Below are positions 1,331-51,700 of a stretch of DNA of 64,000 nt, in pieces. Each line of letters starts with the position of its first letter. Position 1 is the first letter of the stretch. Position numbers and translations under genes: made by a program. Under the pieces are notes generated by a model. It did not search any database. It saw only the letters and a program-made list of their open reading frames with translations, and was not told the origin of the DNA. The stretch is from Gracilinanus agilis (taxonomy: Eukaryota), in assembly GCF_016433145.1 (NCBI RefSeq), contig NC_058133.1, positions 189,960,306 through 190,024,305 on the forward strand, in the 5' to 3' direction.

Positions 1331-3789
1331 GGGGGGAGGAGGTGCACCTGGGGAGGGGAGGGGAGGGCAGACAGGGTGGGGTGCCCTATGATCCCAGCCA
1401 CCCGTGCCAGCCCTAAAACTGGGCACCTCCCCAACTCAGACATTGGGAAGGGGCTTCCAGGGAAGGGGGAGGAACCACAGCGTGTGTATGTATATGTGCG
1501 CATGTTATGTGTCTATGTATACTTGTGTCTGGTGGGGTGATCTATTTCTCTGAATGACCAGTTTGGGGGCTGCTTTCTTGCCCGCCCCCCCCCCCCAGGA
1601 AGTTTCCAAATCTCCCTCTATCCCTCTCTGCACCCCCCGGAAATGACAGGAGTTTGGGGCACCAACTAGATCTGATTTGGGCTTTTTCACCCACATTCTA
1701 CATGTCAGGATTATAGAATAATTGGTTTTATGTTGTGGGAGGCAGAGAGAGGGGGCTTTTAGGGCCAGAGCTAGGGGCTACTGGAGTGCAGGTGCTCAAC
1801 CAGAGGAACCCCTCTCTGGGTAAGAATTAAACATTTGATGCCAATTTTAAGGGGTTAACTACCCTAATTGGGAATCTAGGGATGCCTCCCCCGTTTCACA
1901 CCCCCAAGTAGCGCTGCTTCTCCTGACGTTCATTGCCAGGTTCCCCTGTAGACAGTACTAAAGTGTCTGGGGCCAGCTCCTCCCCCTTCCCTTGCATTCA
2001 CTTGTTCCCTTTAGGATCTATTCCTATCTATTCCTGGTGGAAGCATAAAGATGGGAGTCAGTTGGCCAGCTTTTTTTTTCCTTTCTTTTTTTAAACAATA
2101 ATAAAGGTTTAAGGTTTGCTAAGTATATTATCTCATTTGCTACTCAAAATAGCCCTTTCAAGTAGGTACTATTATTATCCCCATTATACAGATGAGGAAA
2201 AGGATCACTATTTGAAATTGATTGATGACTGACTTGCTGAGTCACAAAGCTAGCTAGTAAGTGTCTAGGGCAGGATATAATAAACTCAGACCTTCCTGAA
2301 TCCAAGTTTAGTGCTCCAGTTACTGTGCTTCTTAGACCAATGAGGGAGAGAGTGTCATCTCTACGGAGAAATTAGCCTTGGAGCTACTTTGGTTATTTGA
2401 AGAACCTCTTGTGGACTAGACTTCTATATTTTTCCTTTTTTGGCCCTCTGTAAAGTGTGATGGATGAGTTCTAAGATTTGGATTTATTAATTTGCTTTTT
2501 TTTCCCCATCTCTAGGTTTGATCTTTTGAATTCAGTCAAAAGATCATAGATTCAGAACTGGAAGGGAACTCAGAGTAACCTAACCTCCTTACTTTACAGA
2601 TAAGGAAACAGAGGTTCAAAGGGTTCCCTCTTACCTTTGACCACTTAAAATCTCTGACTGTGGCTCTAGATTCTTCCTATTGGGTTTATCACATAGGGTG
2701 CCTAGCAGTCGAGGCTGAATGAACTAAATTATTTCTAGCATCATCACAAGCCCTTTTCCCTTTAGGGCTTACCCCTAAGACCCAGGTGCTTTGCAATCAT
2801 GTCAATTGTCAGTTGTCAAAAGAGGCTCCTCCTGCCTTGTGAAGAGATGGAATCATAGTCCTTAACCAAAAAGTACTTTAATATTCTGGATATGAGGACA
2901 AGGGCGTAGGATTCCCTCTAGTCTATGTCCTTTAGCTGTCTTTCAGGTCTCTCTCCTGTGAAGAGAGAACACCAAATAAAGAAATACCCTTCCCTCCACT
3001 TGACCCCATTTTCTTTTGATTCAATAAACTAGAATCCTGCTCTTCTGGGAATAATGGAAAGAACTTGGAGTCACAAGACTGGAGTTTGAATCTTGTCTCT
3101 GAAAAATACCACCTTAGTGAAAAAGAGGGCTGGTTTTGGAGTCAAAGGGCCTGGGTTTGAATCCTCACTCTGTTTTAATTACCTGTGAGATCTTGGAAAA
3201 GTCACTTCCTCTCTTTAGGACTCAGTTTCCTCATCTGTAAAATGAGAGGGTTGAACCAAATGATTTCATTCCCCCCTCCCCCCTTTCTGTTCTAGCATCA
3301 GTTCTAAGACAGAAAAGCAGCAAGGACTAGACAATAGAGGTTAAATAATTTGCCTAGGGTCACACAGCTAGAAAGTATCTGAGGTCATATTTGAACATGG
3401 GTCTTCCCAACTCCAGGCTTGGCTCTCTATTCACTGAGCCACCTATCCAGGGCCAGATGATTTCTAAGATCCCCTCTAGTTGTAGCTGTGTGACCTTAAA
3501 TACCATGGTGTAGTAGAAAGAGCCTTTGGGGTCAGAAGATGCAGGTTCATGTCTTACCTCCGAGACGTCTCTTCTTGTTCGATCACAGACAAGTTAATGA
3601 TATGGGTCCAGCTGTCAGAATTCCTCATTCTCTAAAATGAGGAAGAGATTTGTCATAGACATCTTGGGGAGGCCCAAATTTTCCACTCTAAGACTATGGT
3701 ACTTCCAAACTTTTCTGGGCCTCTTTTCTCATCTTGTGGAAATATTTACCAGATGTCTTAGGAGCTTGTCAAGGGAGGATGGGACTATT

Positions 3790-4172: not shown

Positions 4173-7867
<3,695 letters not shown>

Positions 7868-21079: not shown

Positions 21080-24000
21080 TTAGCCATCCAAGGAGCCACT
21101 GCCCTTGTTTTTACGGCTGAGTGGAAAGGCCGACTTGCTCTGGGGCTGAGTCATCTTGCTGGCCAAGTAGATGAAGGGCTCAAGGAGAGAGCGGCGGTCG
21201 GCCACAGACACCTCCCATAGTTTCACCTTCTCCACCTTGGCCCAGTGCTGGGCCACATCAGGATCCACTCGACGCTGCTCCTGAAGGTCACATTTGTTGC
21301 CAAGGACCACGATGGTGACCTGGGAAAGGATTGAGGAGATGGGCAGAGTAAAGACTGTGCTCATGTAGGGGAGTATATAGCACCTGGAGTCGGGAGGAAC
21401 TGGGTTCAAATTTTCCTTCAAATGCTTCACTAACTGTGGAATCATAGCTAAGCCATTTAACTTCTCTCCATCTCAGTTTCCTAATCCATAAAATGGGAAT
21501 AATAATTCTACTTTAAAGGCTGTGATAGTACATGTAAAACCTTTTGCAAACCTTAAAGCACTTTACATGACTGACTATACAAACGTTAGCCATATTACCA
21601 TTAAGGGATCTTATTCTAAGCAAATGTTCCAGTGAACTATGATCTCATCTCTCCCTGCATTTGCAGTCTAGATGGTCAAAATGTTTATACTAGTATTTGG
21701 AGGGAGAAGGGTGGGGAGCAAAGGACTGGAAACAAAGTAGATGTCCATCAATTGGAGAAAACATGATGATTACAGAGAAGCCTAGAAAGACTTATAGGAA
21801 CTGATACAAAGAGAAGTAAGCAGAGTCAGGAAAGCCATATATACAGTGAGTACAATAATGTAAATGGCAAGAACGATAAAAATAAATGTTACAAAATTAT
21901 AAAGAACAACCTTGGCAGGGCAGCTGGGTGGCTCAGTGGATTGAGAGCCAAGCCTGGAGACAGGAGATTCTGGGCTCAAATCTGGCCTCAGATGCTTCCC
22001 AGCTGTGTGACCCTAGGCAAGTCATTTACCCCCATTGCCTAGACCTTATCACTCTTCTGCCTTGGAACCAATACTCAGTATCCATTCTGAGACAGAAGGT
22101 AAGGATTAAAAAAAATAATAATAATGAGGGGAAGGGATACAAAGGGACATCTAGGGGATATACAAACAAAACATGGCAATAAAAACCAATTTCCAAAGAA
22201 AGTCTCAGTAATGAATTTGGGCTATCATTTCTTTTTCCATCTTTATCTTCACTCTAAACCTTGAGCGGCCTCAAGCAGTCCCATGTCATGTTCTACAGTC
22301 CTATTTGTCTGAGCATTTGAGACAGTTCTGAGTAACTGTTTATGGTGCCTTCCCACTGACCTTATGCTTCCCTTCCTAGTATTCCATTCTTGTTCTCTCT
22401 CCTGACTGTCAGCTAATCCCTGATAAGGTAATTATTAAGGTCCTTCATGAGGACAGCTAGAAGTTGTAGATAGAGTACTAGACCCAAGTCAGGAAGGCCT
22501 GAGTTCAAATATGGGCTCAAGCACTAGTTATGTGGCTGTGGGCAAGTCATTTAACCCTGTATGCCTTAATTTCTTCATCTGTAAAATGAGCTGGAGAAGG
22601 AAATAGCAAACCACTCTAGTATCTTTGCCATGAAAACCCTACATGGGATCACAAAGGGTTGGACACACACACACAAAAAAACAACAACAAAAGTCTCTGA
22701 TATTCTCTGTTCCAGCTTAAAAATACTTATTATAGTTTTATATTTATATTTTATTTTTTTAATATTTTCAGAAAAGAATTTCAGGGAGTAGCTGGGTAGC
22801 TCGGCAGATTGAGAGTCAGGCCTAGAGATGGGAGGTCCTAGGTTCAAATCTGGCCTCAGACTTCCCAGCTGTGTGGGGGGAAAAAAAAATATATATATAT
22901 ATATATATACACACACATATGATATTCCCCTAGGAGCTTTTAAATCTTTAGTTTTATTTTTTTCCATATTGTTCATTTCTGTGAGTAATCTTACAAAACC
23001 AAAACCCTAAAACATAAACCCAAACAAACAAGTGATAAATCATATGCTTCCATCTGTTTTCTTATTCCCAATGTTTCTCTGGAGGTGGAGAATATTCTTT
23101 GTCCTAGGTCCTTCAGAATTGTCCTAGATCATCGTGTTGCTGATAGTAGCTAAGTCTATCATAGTTGACTGTTCCACAATATTGCTGTTACTGTGTACAG
23201 TGTTCTCCTGGTTCTGCTTATTTCATTCAACATCAGTCCATGAAGGTCTTTCCAGCAGGAGTTTTTAAATCTTAAAGAGGAGGGGCAGCTAAGTAGCCTA
23301 GTAGATAGATCTTTAGACCCAGAGACAGGAAATCCTGGCCTCAAATTGGGCCGGAGACAGTTCCTAGTTCTGGGACCCTGAGCAATCCCTTAACCCCAAC
23401 TGCCTCACCCTCACCGCTTTTCTGTCTTGGAACTAATACTCAGTATCAATTCTGAGACCGAAGGTAAGGGCTTAAAAAAAAAAAAATCCTAAAGAGAAAC
23501 CTGAAGAGGGAAAATCCCTAAAACAAAGCAATGAAGGCCACATGTGAAATGGCAGTCAGGTTAATGCTTTGAAGTAAGGTTTCTCCCCTCCACCCAGTGG
23601 CAAGGGGCTTTCCTTCTCCTACTCATTTTACAGATGAGGAAACTGAAACAGGGTTAAATGACTTGTCCAAGGTCATACAGCTATTAAGTGTCTGAGATAG
23701 GATTTGAACTCATGAAGCTGAGTCTTCCTGACCTTTAGCCAGGCACTCTAACGGTGCCACCTATCTGCCCTCAACAATAATAACAAAAAGTGACAAGGAG
23801 ATTAATAGAGAGAACTTTGCTTGGGAAGCCTGTCCCCACTCTTCCTCCCTACAGAAGACTTGAGGGAGCGATACCCTAGGTACCTCTGCTGACCAGGTGT
23901 TGAAATTCTTTTTTTTTTTTTTTAAACCCTTACCTTCTGTCTCGGAATCAATACTGTGTATCGGTTCCAAGGCAGAAAAGTGGCAAGGGCTAGGCAATGG

Positions 24001-27341: not shown

Positions 27342-29549
27342 AAGACAAAGCTGAAAGGATTGGAAGGGGCTTTGAGTGTGCTGGAAGATTAGGGGGAAGG
27401 CTGGTGGTAGTATGAGTCATTTAGCTGATGAAATAAAACACAAAGGCTTAGACTTAAGAGATACCTCCAAGAAGGGAACTCTCACACTTAGCATGGAGTC
27501 CATTGACACTGAAAGAGATGAACCAGAGACAGTCCCCTCACTAAACAGAGTCCCTTAGAGAGGGCTTTAGACTGAGAGATCCTTAGAAAGGGCCTCAGAT
27601 CCAGAAATAACAACTCTACTCTCTACTCCTAGAAGATTCTCAATCTAGAGAGGAAGCCTTCCCTGGCAGGGTTTTTGGACAGGGACAGAGATAGAAGGCC
27701 ACCCAACCCCTCTCCACCTCCCCACATACACAGAGGAAATCCTGGACCCAGAAAAACCCCATGGAAGGAAACCTGGAACTTGGAGCAAAGAATATAACCT
27801 CCACTGAGTTTTCAAGTTCTTCACCTTAACATGAAGGGGGACTTCTAAGGTATTTTCCAGATCTAAGTAGACATAATGGAATCTTGGAACCAAAAAGACC
27901 CTTTAAAGAGGAAAACCTGGACAAAGAGACCACCTTTCCTTCTCCCCCCACCCCACCCCGCCAAAGAGGAAAACCTGGGAAAGGGAATCCCAGGGCTCCT
28001 AGGTGGCAGAATCATGAGTTTATTTGGGGACTATCTTCTTACAGCTAAACTTCGGCAGGCCACGGTCACAGAAAGGAAACCCAACTGACCCAAGGGGTGG
28101 GGGGCTTTGTCCTATTCTGAGCCTCCTATTATTGCCCAGTTGGGACAGGGGGTATAAAGGAATGGTTGATGCTATCTTTGGCCCCTTTGCTCCTGTGATC
28201 TGTGGTACTTGGATGCTGTACCCACCCTTCCACTTAGGATGCCCAGTGTACCCTGGAGCAAGCTGAGGCTACCTACTTACCGGGGTCTTCTCCTATGATC
28301 AAAATCTCTAAGTGCAGGGAGCAGCTGATGCTGACAGAGGTAACCTCCTACTTCCTTCCTTGACCTCCCAGTTATCCCCGCCCTCCTGTATCCGGTCTAC
28401 TGGCAAGAAGAGCCCAGTTGAGAAAAAGGGATGCCAAGGAAGTAACACAGCTCCCTCTAGAGCCATGGGGCCAGAAATGAAGTAGGAGTTATCCAGACCA
28501 AGCTCCGATTGGGCTGCCAGCCCAAAGGTCTTTTCCCATTAGACCTGATGCTGATAATTTTTATTTTTCTAAAAGGGAAGGGAAAGGATGATCAACACAT
28601 TTCTGGGACTTCTAAGGCAAAAAGGTTGAGAGTGAGAGCCTGGCAGTCTCAAGGTCAAGATATGGGGTGGAAGGTGCTGCCATTCCCTCCTAATTTAAGG
28701 CACTGTACAAGTCAATAGGATTCATTCATCCATTCGACAAAACATTTATTAAATACCTCACATATATACAAGGCATTATGCCCTGAAGAAGCTTATTATA
28801 GTCAACAGAGGGGTGGAGAACAATCTATATACACAGTATATACAAAGTAATTTCTAAGTGGAGAGTACTAGTAACTGGTGGGGATGGGGAATCAAGATAG
28901 GCTTCTTCTAGGAGGTAATGTGAGTTGAAATTTAAATCACATATTCTATGAGGATCCTGGATTTGGGAGCTAGAAGAGACACTGGATGAAAAGATCACTT
29001 AGGTCAACTTTGTCCTTTTGCCACAGAAGAAATTAAGATGCAGAAAGGAGCAGTGATTTAGCCAAGGTCACATAAGGGAATTATCCAAAGTTAATATACA
29101 ATACTCATCTTTTCAAAGTATTATCAGCCATATAAATGTGGTTCATTGAACACTGAACAACTGAACTCACTCAATTAGATGTTGGACACTCCTTACTGGT
29201 TTTTTAAAAGGCCTACTATGTTTCAGGCCCTGTGATAAGTACTAGGGATCTACAGAAATGGAAAACAATTCCTGCTCTCAAGAAGCTCATAGTCTGTCCT
29301 CAAGTAACTTAAGAGTTTAGAGGCCATGGTCAGTACAAGTAGGGCACATGGCTTCATAGCTTTGCCAAGGAGAGGAGCATTTTTGTTCACTTAAATCTTG
29401 ACACCACGGATGACTATTCAATGTCAGGTTGGTGTAGGTTGGGTGGGAGCAGTCGCTGGGATGGAAATTTATAGGGGGGCAAGGGTGTGAGGGCTTGGTG
29501 CTGGCTCTGTCAGCCTGACAAGTCCCCCATAAACCAAAGGTGGCACCCT

Positions 29550-30700
29550 CAGGTTAGTGCTGAGGTGGCACTCTCGGGCTGCCCACATGAAGGTTGCCTA
29601 TAAAACAGGTCCGAGCATCATGAGGGGGAGGCCACCGCTGCGTTTGGGGATCCCGGGGTGGGGATGAAAGGTGCGAGCCGCGTTCCCCCAGCTTGGCTGG
29701 GCAGGGCTCCGAGGACCTCCCTCTCCCAGCACGCCGGCGGCCCGTCGGACTCCCCAGGCCGCTCCAGTTCCCCTTGTCTTCTGTCCCACGGGAGAAGGAC
29801 GCGAGGGCGTAGCCATGGCGACGGGCCCCCCGGAACCCTGAGAACAAGCTGGGTTTCCAGGGCCAGCGCGCGGCCGCGCGGGCGACAGGCACGGAGCCTT
29901 ACTCCGCGCCCTCACACACTAGTCCAAGCTGGCTCCTCCGATGAGCCGGGGCCGCCTGTGGGCCCGCACTCTAGCCACAGCAGCCAGGAGGGGACCAGCG
30001 CCGCTCTGGCAGCCAGCGCGTCCTCCCTCTGGCAGGCGAGTCCGAGAGAGCCCCTCTGGGCTCGCCTGGGCAGCTGAGGCGGCGCCGCTCGTTGCTCCGG
30101 AGCCCGGAAGTGCTCTCTACTGCCCGCCCCCCACCCGGCTCCCTGGCTCTGGCGGTAAGATGGCGGCGGCCGCGGAGTGCGATGTGGTAATGGCGGCGGC
30201 GGCGGGGACAGATCCCGAGCCAGAACTGACTGAAGATGAGGAGACCAGGAGGTAAATGGGGGTGCCGGTGGGCCCGGGGGAGGGGACGGCGGGTGGCCCC
30301 GGCTCCTGAGGGGAGGAGGCGCCGTTTCCCCCCACCCCCACCCCCCACCTCTAGGCTCGGCTGGGCCCTGTACCTACGCAGGGCTGGAGCCCCCTGGGCT
30401 GAGGGGGCGGACAGGGGATGATGATCGCAGGCGCCGTGACTGCACCGTCGCTGCTGTCCCCCAACTAGACACACCTCAGGTCTGTGTCCAGGCTCGAGGT
30501 GTTAGGAAGGAGAGGAGGAGCTGGGACTTAGAGCCCGAGCTCGGACCCACAGTCACAGCAGGGCCCCGCTGCTTTTGCTGTGTGACCTTGGGAGGGTCCC
30601 TCTGGGTTTTGGCTTCTTCTGTTAGAGGAGCAGACTCACCCACCCCACCCCCACCCACACCCCATCCCCCCACACCCAGTGCCCGTCCCCTTGCCTAACC
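29550..30700. promoter_or_regulatory. CpG island; bidirectional NKIRAS2/DNAJC7 promoter
   Basis: High GC/CpG; RFX X-box-like GTAGCCATGGCGAC 29809-29822; ETS CCGGAAGT 30104-30111; YY1 AAGATGGCGGC 30157-30167 over the DNAJC7 ATG. Confidence 0.85.
29903..30050 (-). other. NKIRAS2: Candidate non-coding first exon of NKIRAS2
   Basis: Only GTRAG-type minus-strand donor I found in the island (GGA|GTAAGG at 29903/29902). The 5' end is a guess. Confidence 0.4.
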
Positions 30701-45700: not shown

Positions 45701-48700
45701 CCCCCGCCACTCTCCAGTTCAGGTACTCATGTCATGTATCAAGATTTTTTAATTACCTACCTTCTTTTTTGGACTATTTGTGTCATGACTTCTGGCCATT
45801 GACATGGATGGTCAAGAATGTGATCTTTAAAGAGATTCTGTCAACTTCCATTTTTTGGTTTGACAGGATGCAAAAAACAGTACTGAGTGGGGGAGCCTCC
45901 TAAGCTTCAGAAACAATGACCCATGCTATACTTTGTTTTATATCCCACCCCCCCCTTAGACATGTGCCCTAAAAATGCTAGCTATTACGGTAACCGAGCT
46001 GCCACATTGATGATGCTGGGGAGGTTCCGGGAAGCACTGGGAGATGCCCAGCAGTCAGTGAGGCTGGATGACTCTTTTGTCCGGGTATGTGATGGGACCA
46101 TTTGGGGAAGGCTGGGTTGCTTGGGTTGAGTACATTTTGCCTTTGTCTTCTGTTGTCTTTTTTAATTTGTCTGCCTGCTCTATATTCTGCCCCTTTCTCT
46201 CTTCCCAATTACCTCTCTTCTTTCTCTAGGGTCATCTACGAGAAGGCAAATGTCACCTTTCTTTGGGGAATGCTATGGCTGCCTGTCGCTGCTTCCAAAA
46301 GGCTCTAGAACTGGATCACAGAAATACTCAGGCACAACAAGAGGTATGGTCAGAAGAGATAGAATAGTGGCAAATTGAAGGAATCTTAGACTGGGTCTAT
46401 TCCTGGCTCTGACCATGTGATCTTAGGCAAATCAGTTCAGTTTTCTGGACCTCAGTTTCCTCATTTGTAACATGAGGGAGTTGGCTTCTAGCTAAGGTCC
46501 AATATTATAGTGGTCTAGAGGTTCAATAGTCAATGAGAACAAAAGGATATTTTTGTTTTGTGAAAAACTGAGACAAGGGGCTGCTGGGTGTCTTAGCGAA
46601 TAGAGAGCCAGGCGTAAAGATAGGAAGTCCTAGGTTCAAATCTATCCTCAAACACTTCCTAGCTGTGTGACCCTTTCACTTAACCCCCATTGCCTAGCCC
46701 TTGCCACTCTTCTGCCTTAGAACCAATACTTAAGATTGATTCTAAGAAAGAAGGCAAGGACTTTAATAAAAACTAAAAACAAACAAAACTGAGGTAAGAA
46801 GATTGCTATGGAGTTTCAAGAAGGTGGAGATGATATTTTATTTAAGTTGTATTTTAAGCTACAACTTAAAATCCAGTTCAGATTGGTGATGACTGAAAGT
46901 TGTTCCCTATCTGTTTAGACTGTATTTAATTTGAGAGGATCTGGAAACTTTCACTCAGACTATGTAAAAGCATAGTCTGATGCTGTATATCAAACTAGTG
47001 ACTGACATAGTTTGAAACAGAGGGTGGAGTTTGGCCCCTGGTTGTCCTGTTAAAGACCCTCTGTTGTACCTTCATGATCATGAAGCTTCAAAGGGTATCA
47101 TAAGTTGCAGAAAGATTATAGTGATTAGCTTGGGGAGGAAGGGATTTATTTTGTTCTTGTTTTGCAGTTGTTTAATTGTATGTCATCATGAAAACTTAAT
47201 CCTTTTCGGGTTTCATTGTAGTTCAAGAATGCCAATGCTGTCCTAGAATATGAGAAAATAGCTGAAATGGATTTTGAGAAACGAGATTTTCGTAAGGTAA
47301 AATATAAAAATACAATATAAGATCTAATCTTGCCCTTTCTCTCCAGGAGGTATCCAACTAGTTCCCTATTATTCATGCTGGTTGAAAGGAATAGTGATGT
47401 AGACAATTCAGAAATCATTTTTTATATGACTTTGGGTAAAAGCAGGCTATTCTTTTTAGTATGTTTACCTTCTTAATTAAAATCTTAATTATATTTTGTT
47501 TAGTTTACTCATTAAAGGAGTTTTATATTACCTGAATGTACTCAGCTACTGATAGGGCAAGATGTCCTATGGGTATAGGGCTGTGGTGTCCAACCTGTGG
47601 CATGCAGAGGCCTCTCCGTGGGCATCGAGCATAGTAGGCCCCTGGTTTGGCCTGCTGGGAGGCTGGCCCCTTCCCCAAATGTAGGGGATGGGGCATTCTA
47701 GCCTCTCTCTATTGTTGCTGGGGGGCGGGGCTTGAGCTTAGCTGGGTCTTGGAGGCTTCTCCCCTCCTCCCTTCTTGAGCTGAGCAGCTGTGGTGGCCAC
47801 ACCCTATGCCCCCCTCCAGCCAAGATTGATGATGGATTCTAACCACCTATCACTCTGAAAAAGGTACAAAATCCTTTTAGTCTTTGTGGACCCTTACTGG
47901 GTGAATAGTACTGGTAACCATCCTGCTTTTGTAAGCAAAAAATTGATTGGATCCAGGCCCTCCTGATTGCACTGACCCTAATTAAAATAATGGATGAGCC
48001 CCTTTCACCAAGCCCTAAGAGAATATACTAATCAGATCTTCCCTAATCCTTCAAAGGAGGTTGGAGGTGAAATCACACACCCAGCCCAAATGGAGGGATC
48101 TAACCATATAACCCTTGACGGGAAGGTCCCCATCCAGCCATCCTATCCACCCCCAGTGCTGTAAAACTGGAAGGGCAGAATACATGGACTCACATCTCTC
48201 GAATTAAAACCCTTTATCCCCACAGAAATAGGTAGCTGTCTTTCCTGGGTTTTGAACTATGTACACTCAGCTACCTGGGCAGATAATTCCTTAATTCATT
48301 TGGTGGAAGCTGCAGCTAAAGCTGGTTCCTCAGGACTGTTGGGTTTGGAAGAAATACCCCCAAAGTGAAGAAAATCCCTGGTGGCCCCTAGCTGGTGGTC
48401 TCCATGCCTACCAAATGCCTGAGGCTTCCAGGAAATTTGCATCCACTCCATTCTAGCTCTAGCCTTTCACTTTGAATATCCCCAGGCCCAGCATTGGGGG
48501 ATGATGCTCATTCAGGATGGATGGGTTAATCAAGACCCTTTCCAGTATAAGTGCTTTGGTAAGGGTTGGGTCACTGACCTTTTCCCTTTTAATATGACTC
48601 ATACACTGTGTAGAAATTGCACTGGGAACCCTGTTCACCTCCAGGAAGGGAAGGATGATGTATTCCTCTAATTGTACATACTGGTATCCTAATATAACAT

Positions 48701-51700
48701 CTGCAGTCATGAGCCTGCATGCAGTTGGGGTTGGAGTGGGGCATGGCACAGAGGCCCTAAAAAGTTCCTGTCACTGGTATAGGGGAAATCAGACTAGGAT
48801 TAAAAAAAATGTGCTTTAGATAATCCTCATTTTGTAAGTAAAAGTTGCTATCCAGAAGTTGGGAGGAACTTCTTATCTTAGATGTATGGCCTATGATAAT
48901 TTATTTGGTTCTTAGGCCTTATTCACAGAAGCATGTTTCTGTCCATTTATGGAGCCCACCATGTGTTGGTTCTCGTAGTGAAACAAACCAGAGGATATGG
49001 CAGTAATGACAGTCCTGTTGCCATTCAATCTAAGAAGAGGGACTGGGTTTGAATTAATTATTATTAAGAGGGTATAAAATGTTTTCAAGTTGAATGAGAG
49101 AATGTTACCAAGTGTTTATCTCAGAAAAATAACCATTTCCTCTTGTTTCCCTCAAACCTAAAAAGCCATGTTGGAGTTTGTACCATGCTCATACATAGAA
49201 TCTAGCTACTGGTGTTGGTCCTGACTATCATTTAATACCAAGAGCATGTCTTTGGAGCAAAAACATCTGGTTACTGTATGCAGGACTTAAGCATCAGTTC
49301 ACTAGAACCTCTTCTCTGCTTGTTGATTTAAAGAGCTACTCTCTCTCTCTTTGGTATGACTCATCAGTTATTTGGATTCAACCTCTTATCAGTGCTTTCT
49401 GAGATTTTCCCCATTCTCCAGCAGAGCAGATACAAGAGCTTTGTCTCTGAAGGGGGCTTGCTTGGGTGTCTGCTTGTTCTTGCCCACCCTGGAGCCAGAA
49501 TCCCCTGTTTGTGACATCCCAGCCCTCCCCACTGTATCTCATGGTGATGTCACAAATGAGGAATTATGATCCTGGCAGGGGGAACAGATGACCTTGAAAG
49601 AAACAAAGATCTTCTTTGCCTGCAGCTGTCTCTGGTCATGGGGGGTGGGAAGAGAAATGCAAAGCTTCTGACTGATACTCCCCAGCCACCACTGTTAGCG
49701 GAATTGTTTCTTACCTTGGGGTCCTCCTGACTTCTCTTGAAGGTATTAATTATAATTAGCATGGCTGTTGATTGAAAATTGAGCAACTTTTTTTCCTTTG
49801 TTGCTATATTCTTTTCCCATTTGAGGAGAAAGATGTGACATCATGACTCTTTGTATGGCCAAAAATCTGAAATAGAAGCTTGCCCTTAGGATGATGATTT
49901 AAGACTTCTTAAAATGTGATATTTGTTACTTATTGGTTGACCTTGTTGAGCAAGGCCTTGTTTTTAGTTATCAACTTTTTCTGAACAGGGAAGAATGAAG
50001 TTTCCAGGCCCTAAAACTTAAGCTCTATACTCTCTCTCTCTGTGGTCCCTATAACTAGATACTTACAGAGAATCAGAATTTTTCTCTAAATTTTGTCAGT
50101 GTCAAAATTATCCTTGGGAAGAAAACTATTTTCCAAGCAAATTTCTTTAAATGCCTGCATTCTAGAGCTAAATGCCTTGCAACAGATTAGGATTGTGACC
50201 ATGACCTGCCAAAAAATAAAAGTAGAAGGGAATGTTTATAACAGATTTCTAGGGAAAAAAAACTTCAAATATATATATATATATATACTCCCTTCTAATG
50301 ATGATATTGGGAAATAAGACTGGCAGCCATCTTATCCAGCCCTAGTTTTTATCCTGAACTCCAGGCTTGCATCACCAACTGCCTGATACCCTAAGATGTT
50401 CTTCACTCTTCCTCATCTTGTATTAATCAAGTTGTCAATTACCTCCACATCTTCCTTCTGTCTCCCTCCTCTACTCACTTGGCTCTCATCACACCTCACC
50501 TGGACTAGTGCAGCAGCATTCTAATTGGTCTCCCTGCTTCAGTCTCTCCCTTATTTAATCTGGCCCTCACACCATTGTCAGAGAGATATATAGTTATTAA
50601 ATGTTACTACTTTTTTTAGAAGGCTCCATTGGATCCCTCTTGTCTCACAAATCAAATACAAACTTCTCTATTGGCCATTTAGAGCCCTTTACAATCTGAC
50701 TTTAGCTCACTTTTCCAGGCTTATTTCACATTATCATTCCTTTTCCTATCCCCTGTGGGTCAGACAAACTGACTCCCTTGTTGTTTCCTGTTTGTGACAT
50801 TCCATCTCCCATCTCTGTTACTTTGCACAGATTGGAAAGCACTCAGCCAAACTAGCTAACTGAGTACCTTCTATGTGACTCTCACTCCCCCACATTATTT
50901 TGTGTTACCTAACTGTGTATATGTTGTTTTTCTTAGTGATTACTAGTTCCTTGAGGGCAAAGACTACTTGGCTTTTGTCTTTGTATAATCAGAGCTTAGC
51001 ACAGTGCTGGGCACAAAATAGGTACTTATAAATGCTGCTTGTAGGGGCAGCTAGGTGGTTCAGTGAATAGAGAGCCAAGCCTAGAGATGGGAGGGTCTGG
51101 GTTCCAATCTGGCCTCAGGCATTTCCTAGCTCTTGACACTGGGCAAGTAAGTCACTTAACCTATTGCCTAGCCTTTACCTCCTCATTTGCCTTAGAACCA
51201 ATACACAGAATTGATTCTAAGACAGAAGGTAAAGGTTTAAAAAAATGTTTTTAATAAATGCTTGTTGATCAATTGGTGTTATAGGCTAATTTGTTATATG
51301 AAGTTTCATCCTATTATAAGTAGTTGCATTTTGGAAATGTGATCTCATACAGCTTGTTTAAATCCATGTCAAAATGAGCTGAGAGTGATTTGATTGGTGA
51401 TTAGGAGTCCTGAATTGTGAGTGTGTCTGTGAAGTAGAATTGAAAGTATCTCCTTGGGGTGGGATCCTTTTAGAATTGTAAAGAAAGAAGCAAGTTAACC
51501 CTGGCACCTGAGGTAAGAGATGTATCCCACCCATATTGCATTTCTGTGCATAGAATTTAATTATTTGCTCTCTGATAAATAGGCTAAAGAAACCCATTTT
51601 GGTGGTTTCTTCTACCTTTTGGCTTTTAACCAACTAATCCAATATCTGGGAAGATGCTGAAGTAGAATTGTCTCAGAAGCCTGAGCTGAAGACTTCATCT

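Follow-up and report, generated by a model that had tools for sequence, protein, structure and literature searches.

A dispersed marsupial hAT-type transposon family carrying an LTR-free integrase-env fragment of a gamma-like endogenous retrovirus

Can a cut-and-paste DNA transposon take up retroviral coding DNA and spread it through a mammalian genome? This question is raised by a 64,000-nucleotide stretch of the Gracilinanus agilis genome (GCF_016433145.1, NC_058133.1, 189,960,306 to 190,024,305; hereafter the window), in which an earlier note had described a hAT-like element with remnants of an endogenous retrovirus (ERV) inside. Read directly, the element is 1196 bp long and occupies window 47581-48776, between perfect copies of an 8-bp target-site duplication (TSD), GTATAGGG; the coordinates in that note were exact. 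We observed that a hAT element has mobilised retroviral coding DNA, because many loci share the hAT-ERV junctions, each with a different 8-bp TSD, and have no long terminal repeat (LTR) remnants. We conclude with high confidence that the window element is a decayed copy of a non-autonomous hAT family carrying a deleted piece of a gamma-like ERV, which likely spread in trans to more than 100 sites after what appears to be a single capture.

A DNA search of the genome with the element returned 336 candidates (40 scored), on all 7 large contigs. Used as a protein query, the env-derived frame had 143 matches, distributed over 130 loci. Both searches combined yielded 136 loci, a few of them plain proviruses (at least 7 seen), and a rough capture-recapture estimate was 153 loci. 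The 90 loci fetched collapsed to 68 distinct places: 45 had both ends of the element, 17 one end and 5 no end, and 1 was unclassed. Among the 45 two-ended copies, the flanking 8-bp repeats differed at one position at most in 20 and at two at most in 35 (1.4% and 9.3%, respectively, of 1980 cross-locus control pairs). The 35 TSDs with up to two mismatches were each different and followed the preference NNCTAGNN, with C in 28, T in 31, A in 34 and G in 28 at positions 3-6 (central TA). Such a central-TA target preference is typical of the Charlie/Buster group of hATs. As in non-autonomous hATs, the 8-bp TSD was accompanied across the family by short imperfect terminal inverted repeats (TIRs) of ~16 bp that start with C and end with G. 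The flanks of 18 copies had only scattered repeat matches in common. The recurrence of the junctions at many loci, each with its own 8-bp TSD, bears out the earlier proposal that a cut-and-paste element mobilised the retroviral DNA. The cargo-free parent described below is a MITE (miniature inverted-repeat transposable element).

The same data bear on two other explanations. If the copies had spread as retrotransposed RNA (L1/RTE-driven or ERV-packaged) or by segmental duplication, with the hAT ends as passengers, this would suit the retroviral nature of the cargo, and two locus pairs do resemble local duplications. However, the TSDs show the NNCTAGNN preference seen in the cargo-free MITEs and abut both TIRs precisely, the copies have no poly(A) tail or LTR, and the flanks are unrelated. 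The constant 8-bp TSD largely refutes this route, which we consider very improbable. An accident at one locus, with an ERV fragment between unrelated MITE ends, or an assembly artefact, might be suspected from the poor TIRs of the window copy on their own. This is refuted by an architecture common to 45 loci and by read-derived contigs that bridge both window junctions, leaving it a negligible chance. These contigs, from a public run, showed 0 differences across both element-flank junctions; that run possibly represents the source sample and so does not count as independent evidence. In two organisms, sampled in two studies, the interior had 30-150x the summed contig depth of the flank, with joints in common; this ratio is not a copy number. 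In a second species, with a flank ~93% identical, contigs piled up over the same interior with the same joints, so the family is present there. For a third organism (two runs), no contigs covered the element, but the flanks were barely covered either, so this does not indicate absence. At one locus, L146 (G000:C1:72.38 Mb), a chimeric copy is present as pieces in opposite orientations, separated by ~2 kb and with a matching motif in the flank, which suggests an inversion or a double insertion.

We next turn to the source of the cargo. Searched with the integrase piece, the same genome also yielded proviruses that lack hAT ends. The most informative of these, L150, has Gag_p30, RVT_1, rve, MLVIN_C and TLV_coat domains, and this domain set marks the provirus family as gamma-like (ERV1). 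The 45 copies map in order on L150 from 3317 (integrase core start) to 5231 (inside the env surface subunit, SU, before the transmembrane subunit, TM), with a mean identity of 75%; two gaps in this mapping are later insertions within L150. MLVIN_C was found in other copies at E ≤ 0.1 (11 of 15) and E < 1e-3 (7 of 15), and above the curated cut-off in 1 of 15. No Pfam env profile scored on any copy (the window copy and 15 others), and the env identity of the cargo follows from its collinearity with a provirus having rve, MLVIN_C and TLV_coat. The LTR of the donor family was identified in L108 (~490 bp, TG...CA). None of the 45 two-ended copies had a match to the LTR, to gag or reverse transcriptase (RT), or to the SU end or TM, in agreement with the earlier reading that no LTRs surround the cargo. 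Unlike a provirus, which has LTRs at both ends and a primer-binding site, the element showed no LTR match; the cargo source has gamma-type pol followed by env. All copies are broken, with a longest stop-free plus-strand stretch of 57-123 codons in 37/37. Trees were built from 24 of the 45 copies, leaving out rows with <50% coverage, and the integrase tree placed 19 cargo rows apart from 12 ERV rows (support 99.7/100).

An ERV subfamily, L107-L111, was tried as the donor and rejected: it has an integrase deletion of similar size, but other breakpoints and no env SU. The subfamily is itself non-autonomous: its gag and protease are fused to the end of the integrase, and RT and env SU are missing. 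L111 keeps a frame of 1132 codons that includes Gag_MA, Gag_p30, zf-CCHC, RVP and MLVIN_C. At L144, L145, L148 and L153 (clustered at G000:C3:491.9-492.6 Mb, plus one small contig) we also observed pieces of the same ERV group that contain env alone and no pol. They are tandemly repeated in L145, and the cluster is possibly a duplicated host locus.

What carried this DNA? The 23-nt left end occurs at 605 exact sites. None of 30 inspected sites held cargo, and most were MITEs of 170-500 bp with the same NNCTAGNN target preference. This wider MITE group agrees with the first 65-73 bp of the family's left arm. A closer cargo-free group of 320-614 bp (20 loci, at least 9 of them clear two-ended cases) has the family's left and right arms in full, and its centre is absent from the chimeras; retroviral DNA therefore replaced part of the MITE interior. 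In this family, both TIRs of a single element enclose foreign DNA, and the many copies have distinct TSDs, two features of multicopy Pack-type TIR elements (Pack-TIRs). A 14-of-15-bp repeat that flanks the cargo was considered as a duplication made at capture and rejected, since the motif is a repeat unit of the cargo-free MITE. The earlier note had likened the ends to those of Myotis_hAT1/nhAT1, a family reported as horizontally transferred into opossum; we take this as a tentative lead. 

Candidate partners were sought with the transposase profiles PF05699 and PF18658 (Pfam; 150 candidates scored each), and 11 stretches were fetched. A 2.7-kb hAT was rejected as the partner (ends related but different, arms not shared), as was a 4.5-kb OC1-like hAT (arms not shared), and no transposase was found in six stretches behind unpaired left ends. 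Because the hATs recovered carry other ends, we infer the driver, a hAT transposase that would have been supplied in trans. 

The rejected families and other MITEs have features of their own. The 2.7-kb autonomous hAT family comprises L228 2527-5134 (G000:C4:108.875 Mb), L229, L231, L235 and L238, with copies 87-90% identical; two copies keep transposase frames of 618-622 codons with zf-C2H2_12 and hAT dimerisation domains, and a MITE with the same ends as L228 lies directly behind it. The 4.5-kb OC1-like family comprises L233 684-5200 (G000:C1:46.57 Mb), L234, L236 and L237 (92-94% identical); in L233 the 8-bp TSD is perfect and the frame spans 685 codons, and the element is exceptionally long for its group. 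Another MITE (L154 256-590) is AT-rich, 335 bp long and almost identical in its left end; it gave 4188 first-look candidates, with top matches ~10% apart, and one copy of this type is inserted inside a chimeric element (L076). Two identical 508-bp elements, L244/L245, lie 2.8 kb apart (G000:C3:490.47 Mb), with their left part from a different MITE; they represent either a hybrid that was recently duplicated in tandem or a repeat of the assembly.

The chimeric copies fall into deletion lineages. Subfamily A (25/45, including the window copy) keeps the integrase core start and has lost the integrase-env linker; subfamily B (15/45) keeps the linker and has lost the core start. Two further copies have both pieces and three are unassigned. 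A and B are complementary, which means that their ancestor exceeded both in length. Two internal deletion junctions were present in 32/45 and 37/45 copies, in A and B alike, and in 0/18 ERV loci; a reversed probe matched 0/45. Junctions common to both subfamilies and absent from the ERV loci suggest one capture. Some derivatives are shorter still, for example L167 (472 bp), with only ~90 bp of cargo left and its own TSD.

A tree of 37 of the 45 copies (8 with later insertions were dropped) was star-like. Mean pairwise Kimura two-parameter divergence in this set was 0.257, or 0.214 without CpG-prone columns, and divergence per copy was ~10.7%. At the marsupial rate of 3.21e-9 given in a published study (PMC3621081), the pairwise divergence corresponds to 40 Myr, or to 33 Myr without CpG-prone columns. 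The window copy has a sister, L002 (support 100/99, 87% identical), 3.2 Mb away on the same contig; its nearby position and different TSD fit a local hop.

These data suggest a sequence of events. A GC-rich MITE would have acquired ~1.5 kb from a provirus, within the array of repeats in its interior. Template switching during excision-gap repair is the most likely way, and we rate it somewhat more probable than the alternative discussed next. The hAT transposase probably then amplified the chimera in a burst of jumping ~33-40 Myr ago, and repeated jumping with error-prone gap repair could have produced lineages A and B. 

The alternative concerns the capture step only: a whole provirus integrated into the MITE, and large deletions then took away its two LTRs, gag-pro-RT and the end of env, prior to amplification. 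The family is prone to internal deletions, L167 being an example, and the human repeat Ricksha retained an ERV LTR, which shows that LTR-bearing pieces can be carried. Against this route, no longer intermediate was seen, and the 45 two-ended copies show no sign of LTR, gag, RT or TM. Both junctions lie inside coding sequence, so two independent multi-kb deletions without survivors would be needed. We regard it as a serious possibility that falls clearly short of an even chance. The earlier note had set a nested, later trimmed ERV against mobility; the opposition does not hold, and what stands is a rival route to the same chimera. 

Several observations weigh against our account of a family spread by transposition after template-switch capture. 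We did not find the exact donor; the nearest provirus reaches 73-75% identity to the cargo, versus 82% among copies. A protein search with the L150 env start gave nothing at E ≤ 0.001 among 156 candidates, which is weak evidence. The env tree separates 24 cargo rows from 6 ERV rows with weak support (5.1/77). The loci examined were the top search matches, which biases the set toward well-kept copies. Ten of the 45 two-ended loci had three or more TSD mismatches, and the pairs L102/L141 and L086/L092 resemble segmental duplicates rather than jumps. No empty orthologous site was seen, and none was readable from the public-run contigs. Since the repeat flanking the cargo belongs to the MITE, no positive template-switch signature was found beyond 2-bp overlaps read by eye. 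Finally, there was no autonomous element with these ends or arms among the transposase-bearing hATs recovered.

How does the window copy fit this family? Its left TSD copy (47573-47580) is identical to the right one (48777-48784) and matches the NNCTAGNN preference at the fifth-position A and the sixth-position G. All parts between them read on the plus strand. The left TIR (47581-47596) is a decayed hAT-type end with 4 mismatches to a 22-nt degenerate end motif derived from the copies (next best, 8). The TIRs of this copy are badly decayed (~8/16 bases complementary) and recognisable mainly via the family; the hAT-like ends proposed earlier thus hold across the family and are poor in the window copy alone. 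The GC-rich left arm (47581-47822) derives from the cargo-free hAT MITE and is partly deleted here; chimera arms align over ~290 bp with the cargo-free loci L239-L258. Integrase core remnants follow (47823-48090) as four short collinear pieces with deletions between them and with stops and frameshifts, corresponding to L150 3310-3386, 3482-3521 (weak), 3660-3745 and 3840 onward. About 260 bp of the core are absent, and ~90 bp further on are absent too; the rve domain of L150 maps there. The remnant of the integrase C-terminal domain (MLVIN_C, PF18697) lies at 48113-48211 (E = 0.0025, under the curated cut-off). The integrase-env linker is deleted, as in the rest of subfamily A. The N-terminal part of env SU (48243-48700) matches L150 4529-4741 and 5008-5231 at 69-75% and stops before the cleavage site and TM; TLV_coat lies further downstream, at ~L150 5810-6150. 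The integrase and env-like motifs listed in the earlier note are readable in the three plus frames of the element (stops as X). Together with the MLVIN_C match and the collinearity with L150, they confirm the interior as ERV1 integrase followed by env SU remnants. The right arm (48701-48776) includes the right TIR (48761-48776) and, by comparison with the family and the cargo-free MITE, is MITE-derived and shortened here.

The surroundings of the element contain several host features. A 75-bp exon with AG/GT borders lies at window 47222-47296 (+), 276 bp upstream of the element; it had no PDB match. We take its peptide to be that of DNAJC7, which would place the element in an intron with the cargo in sense to the host gene. 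Elsewhere in the window, we observed a Ras-family exon at 21083-21472 (-) and a C17orf113 zinc finger at 4173-4901 (+), both by Pfam, a 512-codon frame at 6329-7864 (+) and a CpG island at 29501-30500. This layout presumably corresponds to the NKIRAS2/DNAJC7/C17orf113 region. 

Has the cargo been kept because it is useful, as a domesticated env or integrase piece or as a regulatory element? Its presence in >100 copies and the presumed sense-strand, intronic position of the window copy would be compatible with this. However, every copy is broken, as given above, and cargo was lost piecemeal across lineages, which makes a useful cargo improbable. There is no sign of function for the family; the cargo is probably a passenger and the family probably now inert.

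In plants, cut-and-paste transposons commonly give rise to multicopy capture; in animals such cases are rarely reported. The family shows that a marsupial hAT wave took up retroviral coding DNA and multiplied it extensively, and its complementary deletion lineages make a capture-and-trim mechanism testable across related species. Retroviral surveys would mistake more than 100 such copies for ERV integrations, and this would skew both the copy number and the dates of ERVs. A full-text literature search found no description of this hAT-ERV1 family; repeat libraries or paper supplements may already contain it. We advance only tentatively, at a little under even chances, the fuller claim of an undescribed marsupial hAT family in which one template-switch capture of LTR-free pol-env reached ~130-150 sites. 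Among mammals, no larger Pack-type TIR family with retroviral cargo would then be known, and its copies would record, step by step and with dates, how captured DNA is pared down during transposition.

Comparison with known systems places these results. Ricksha is of early eutherian age, and RICKSHA_0 is its cargo-free form. It is a MuDR-class human repeat, a DNA transposon carrying the 3' end of an ERVL (PMC3531169), and is listed under MuDR together with RICKSHA_0 (PMC5753468). Like the marsupial family, Ricksha is a non-autonomous DNA transposon that took up and spread part of an ERV, and both have a cargo-free parent. The earlier statement that such an event is rarely described in mammals therefore needs qualifying, as a mammalian precedent exists. 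The marsupial family differs in having hAT-type ends, an 8-bp TSD and short TIRs, in contrast to the MuDR ends of Ricksha. Its cargo is a gamma-like ERV1, coding-only integrase-env piece with no LTR, whereas Ricksha carries an ERVL 3' end with LTR. It is also much younger, on the age we assume for Ricksha, and has a visible series of deletion subfamilies. 

A 100-genome screen by Tan et al. 2021 reported four multicopy Pack-TIRs, from frog and alligator and none from mammals (PMC8277862). The frog hAT-N8_XT, with 3 copies, is one example (PMC8277862). In these as in the marsupial family, the TIRs of a single element enclose foreign DNA that further transposition amplified, with distinct TSDs; the marsupial family differs in its >100 copies in a mammal and in its retroviral cargo rather than a host gene. 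The screen's filter demanded a unique parental copy at ≥90% identity (PMC8277862). The closest donor here is ~75% identical and would fail this filter, so the screen could not have found the marsupial family. 

The horizontally transferred hAT families of opossum (OC1, SPIN, hAT1) and their MITEs share the 8-bp TSD and the central TA, and the per-copy divergence of the chimeras comes near the value stated for OC1 in opossum, 10.5% (PMC3621081). In this genome, the autonomous hATs recovered, the OC1-like one included, differ in their ends from the chimera family. Bat Helitrons carry host and retro-element fragments (PMC4224331) and are likewise mammalian DNA transposons that amplify captured retro-derived DNA, but they are rolling-circle elements without TIRs or TSDs. 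Overall, the concept is known from Ricksha; new here are the hAT vehicle, the ERV1 source, the coding-only cargo and the marsupial host.

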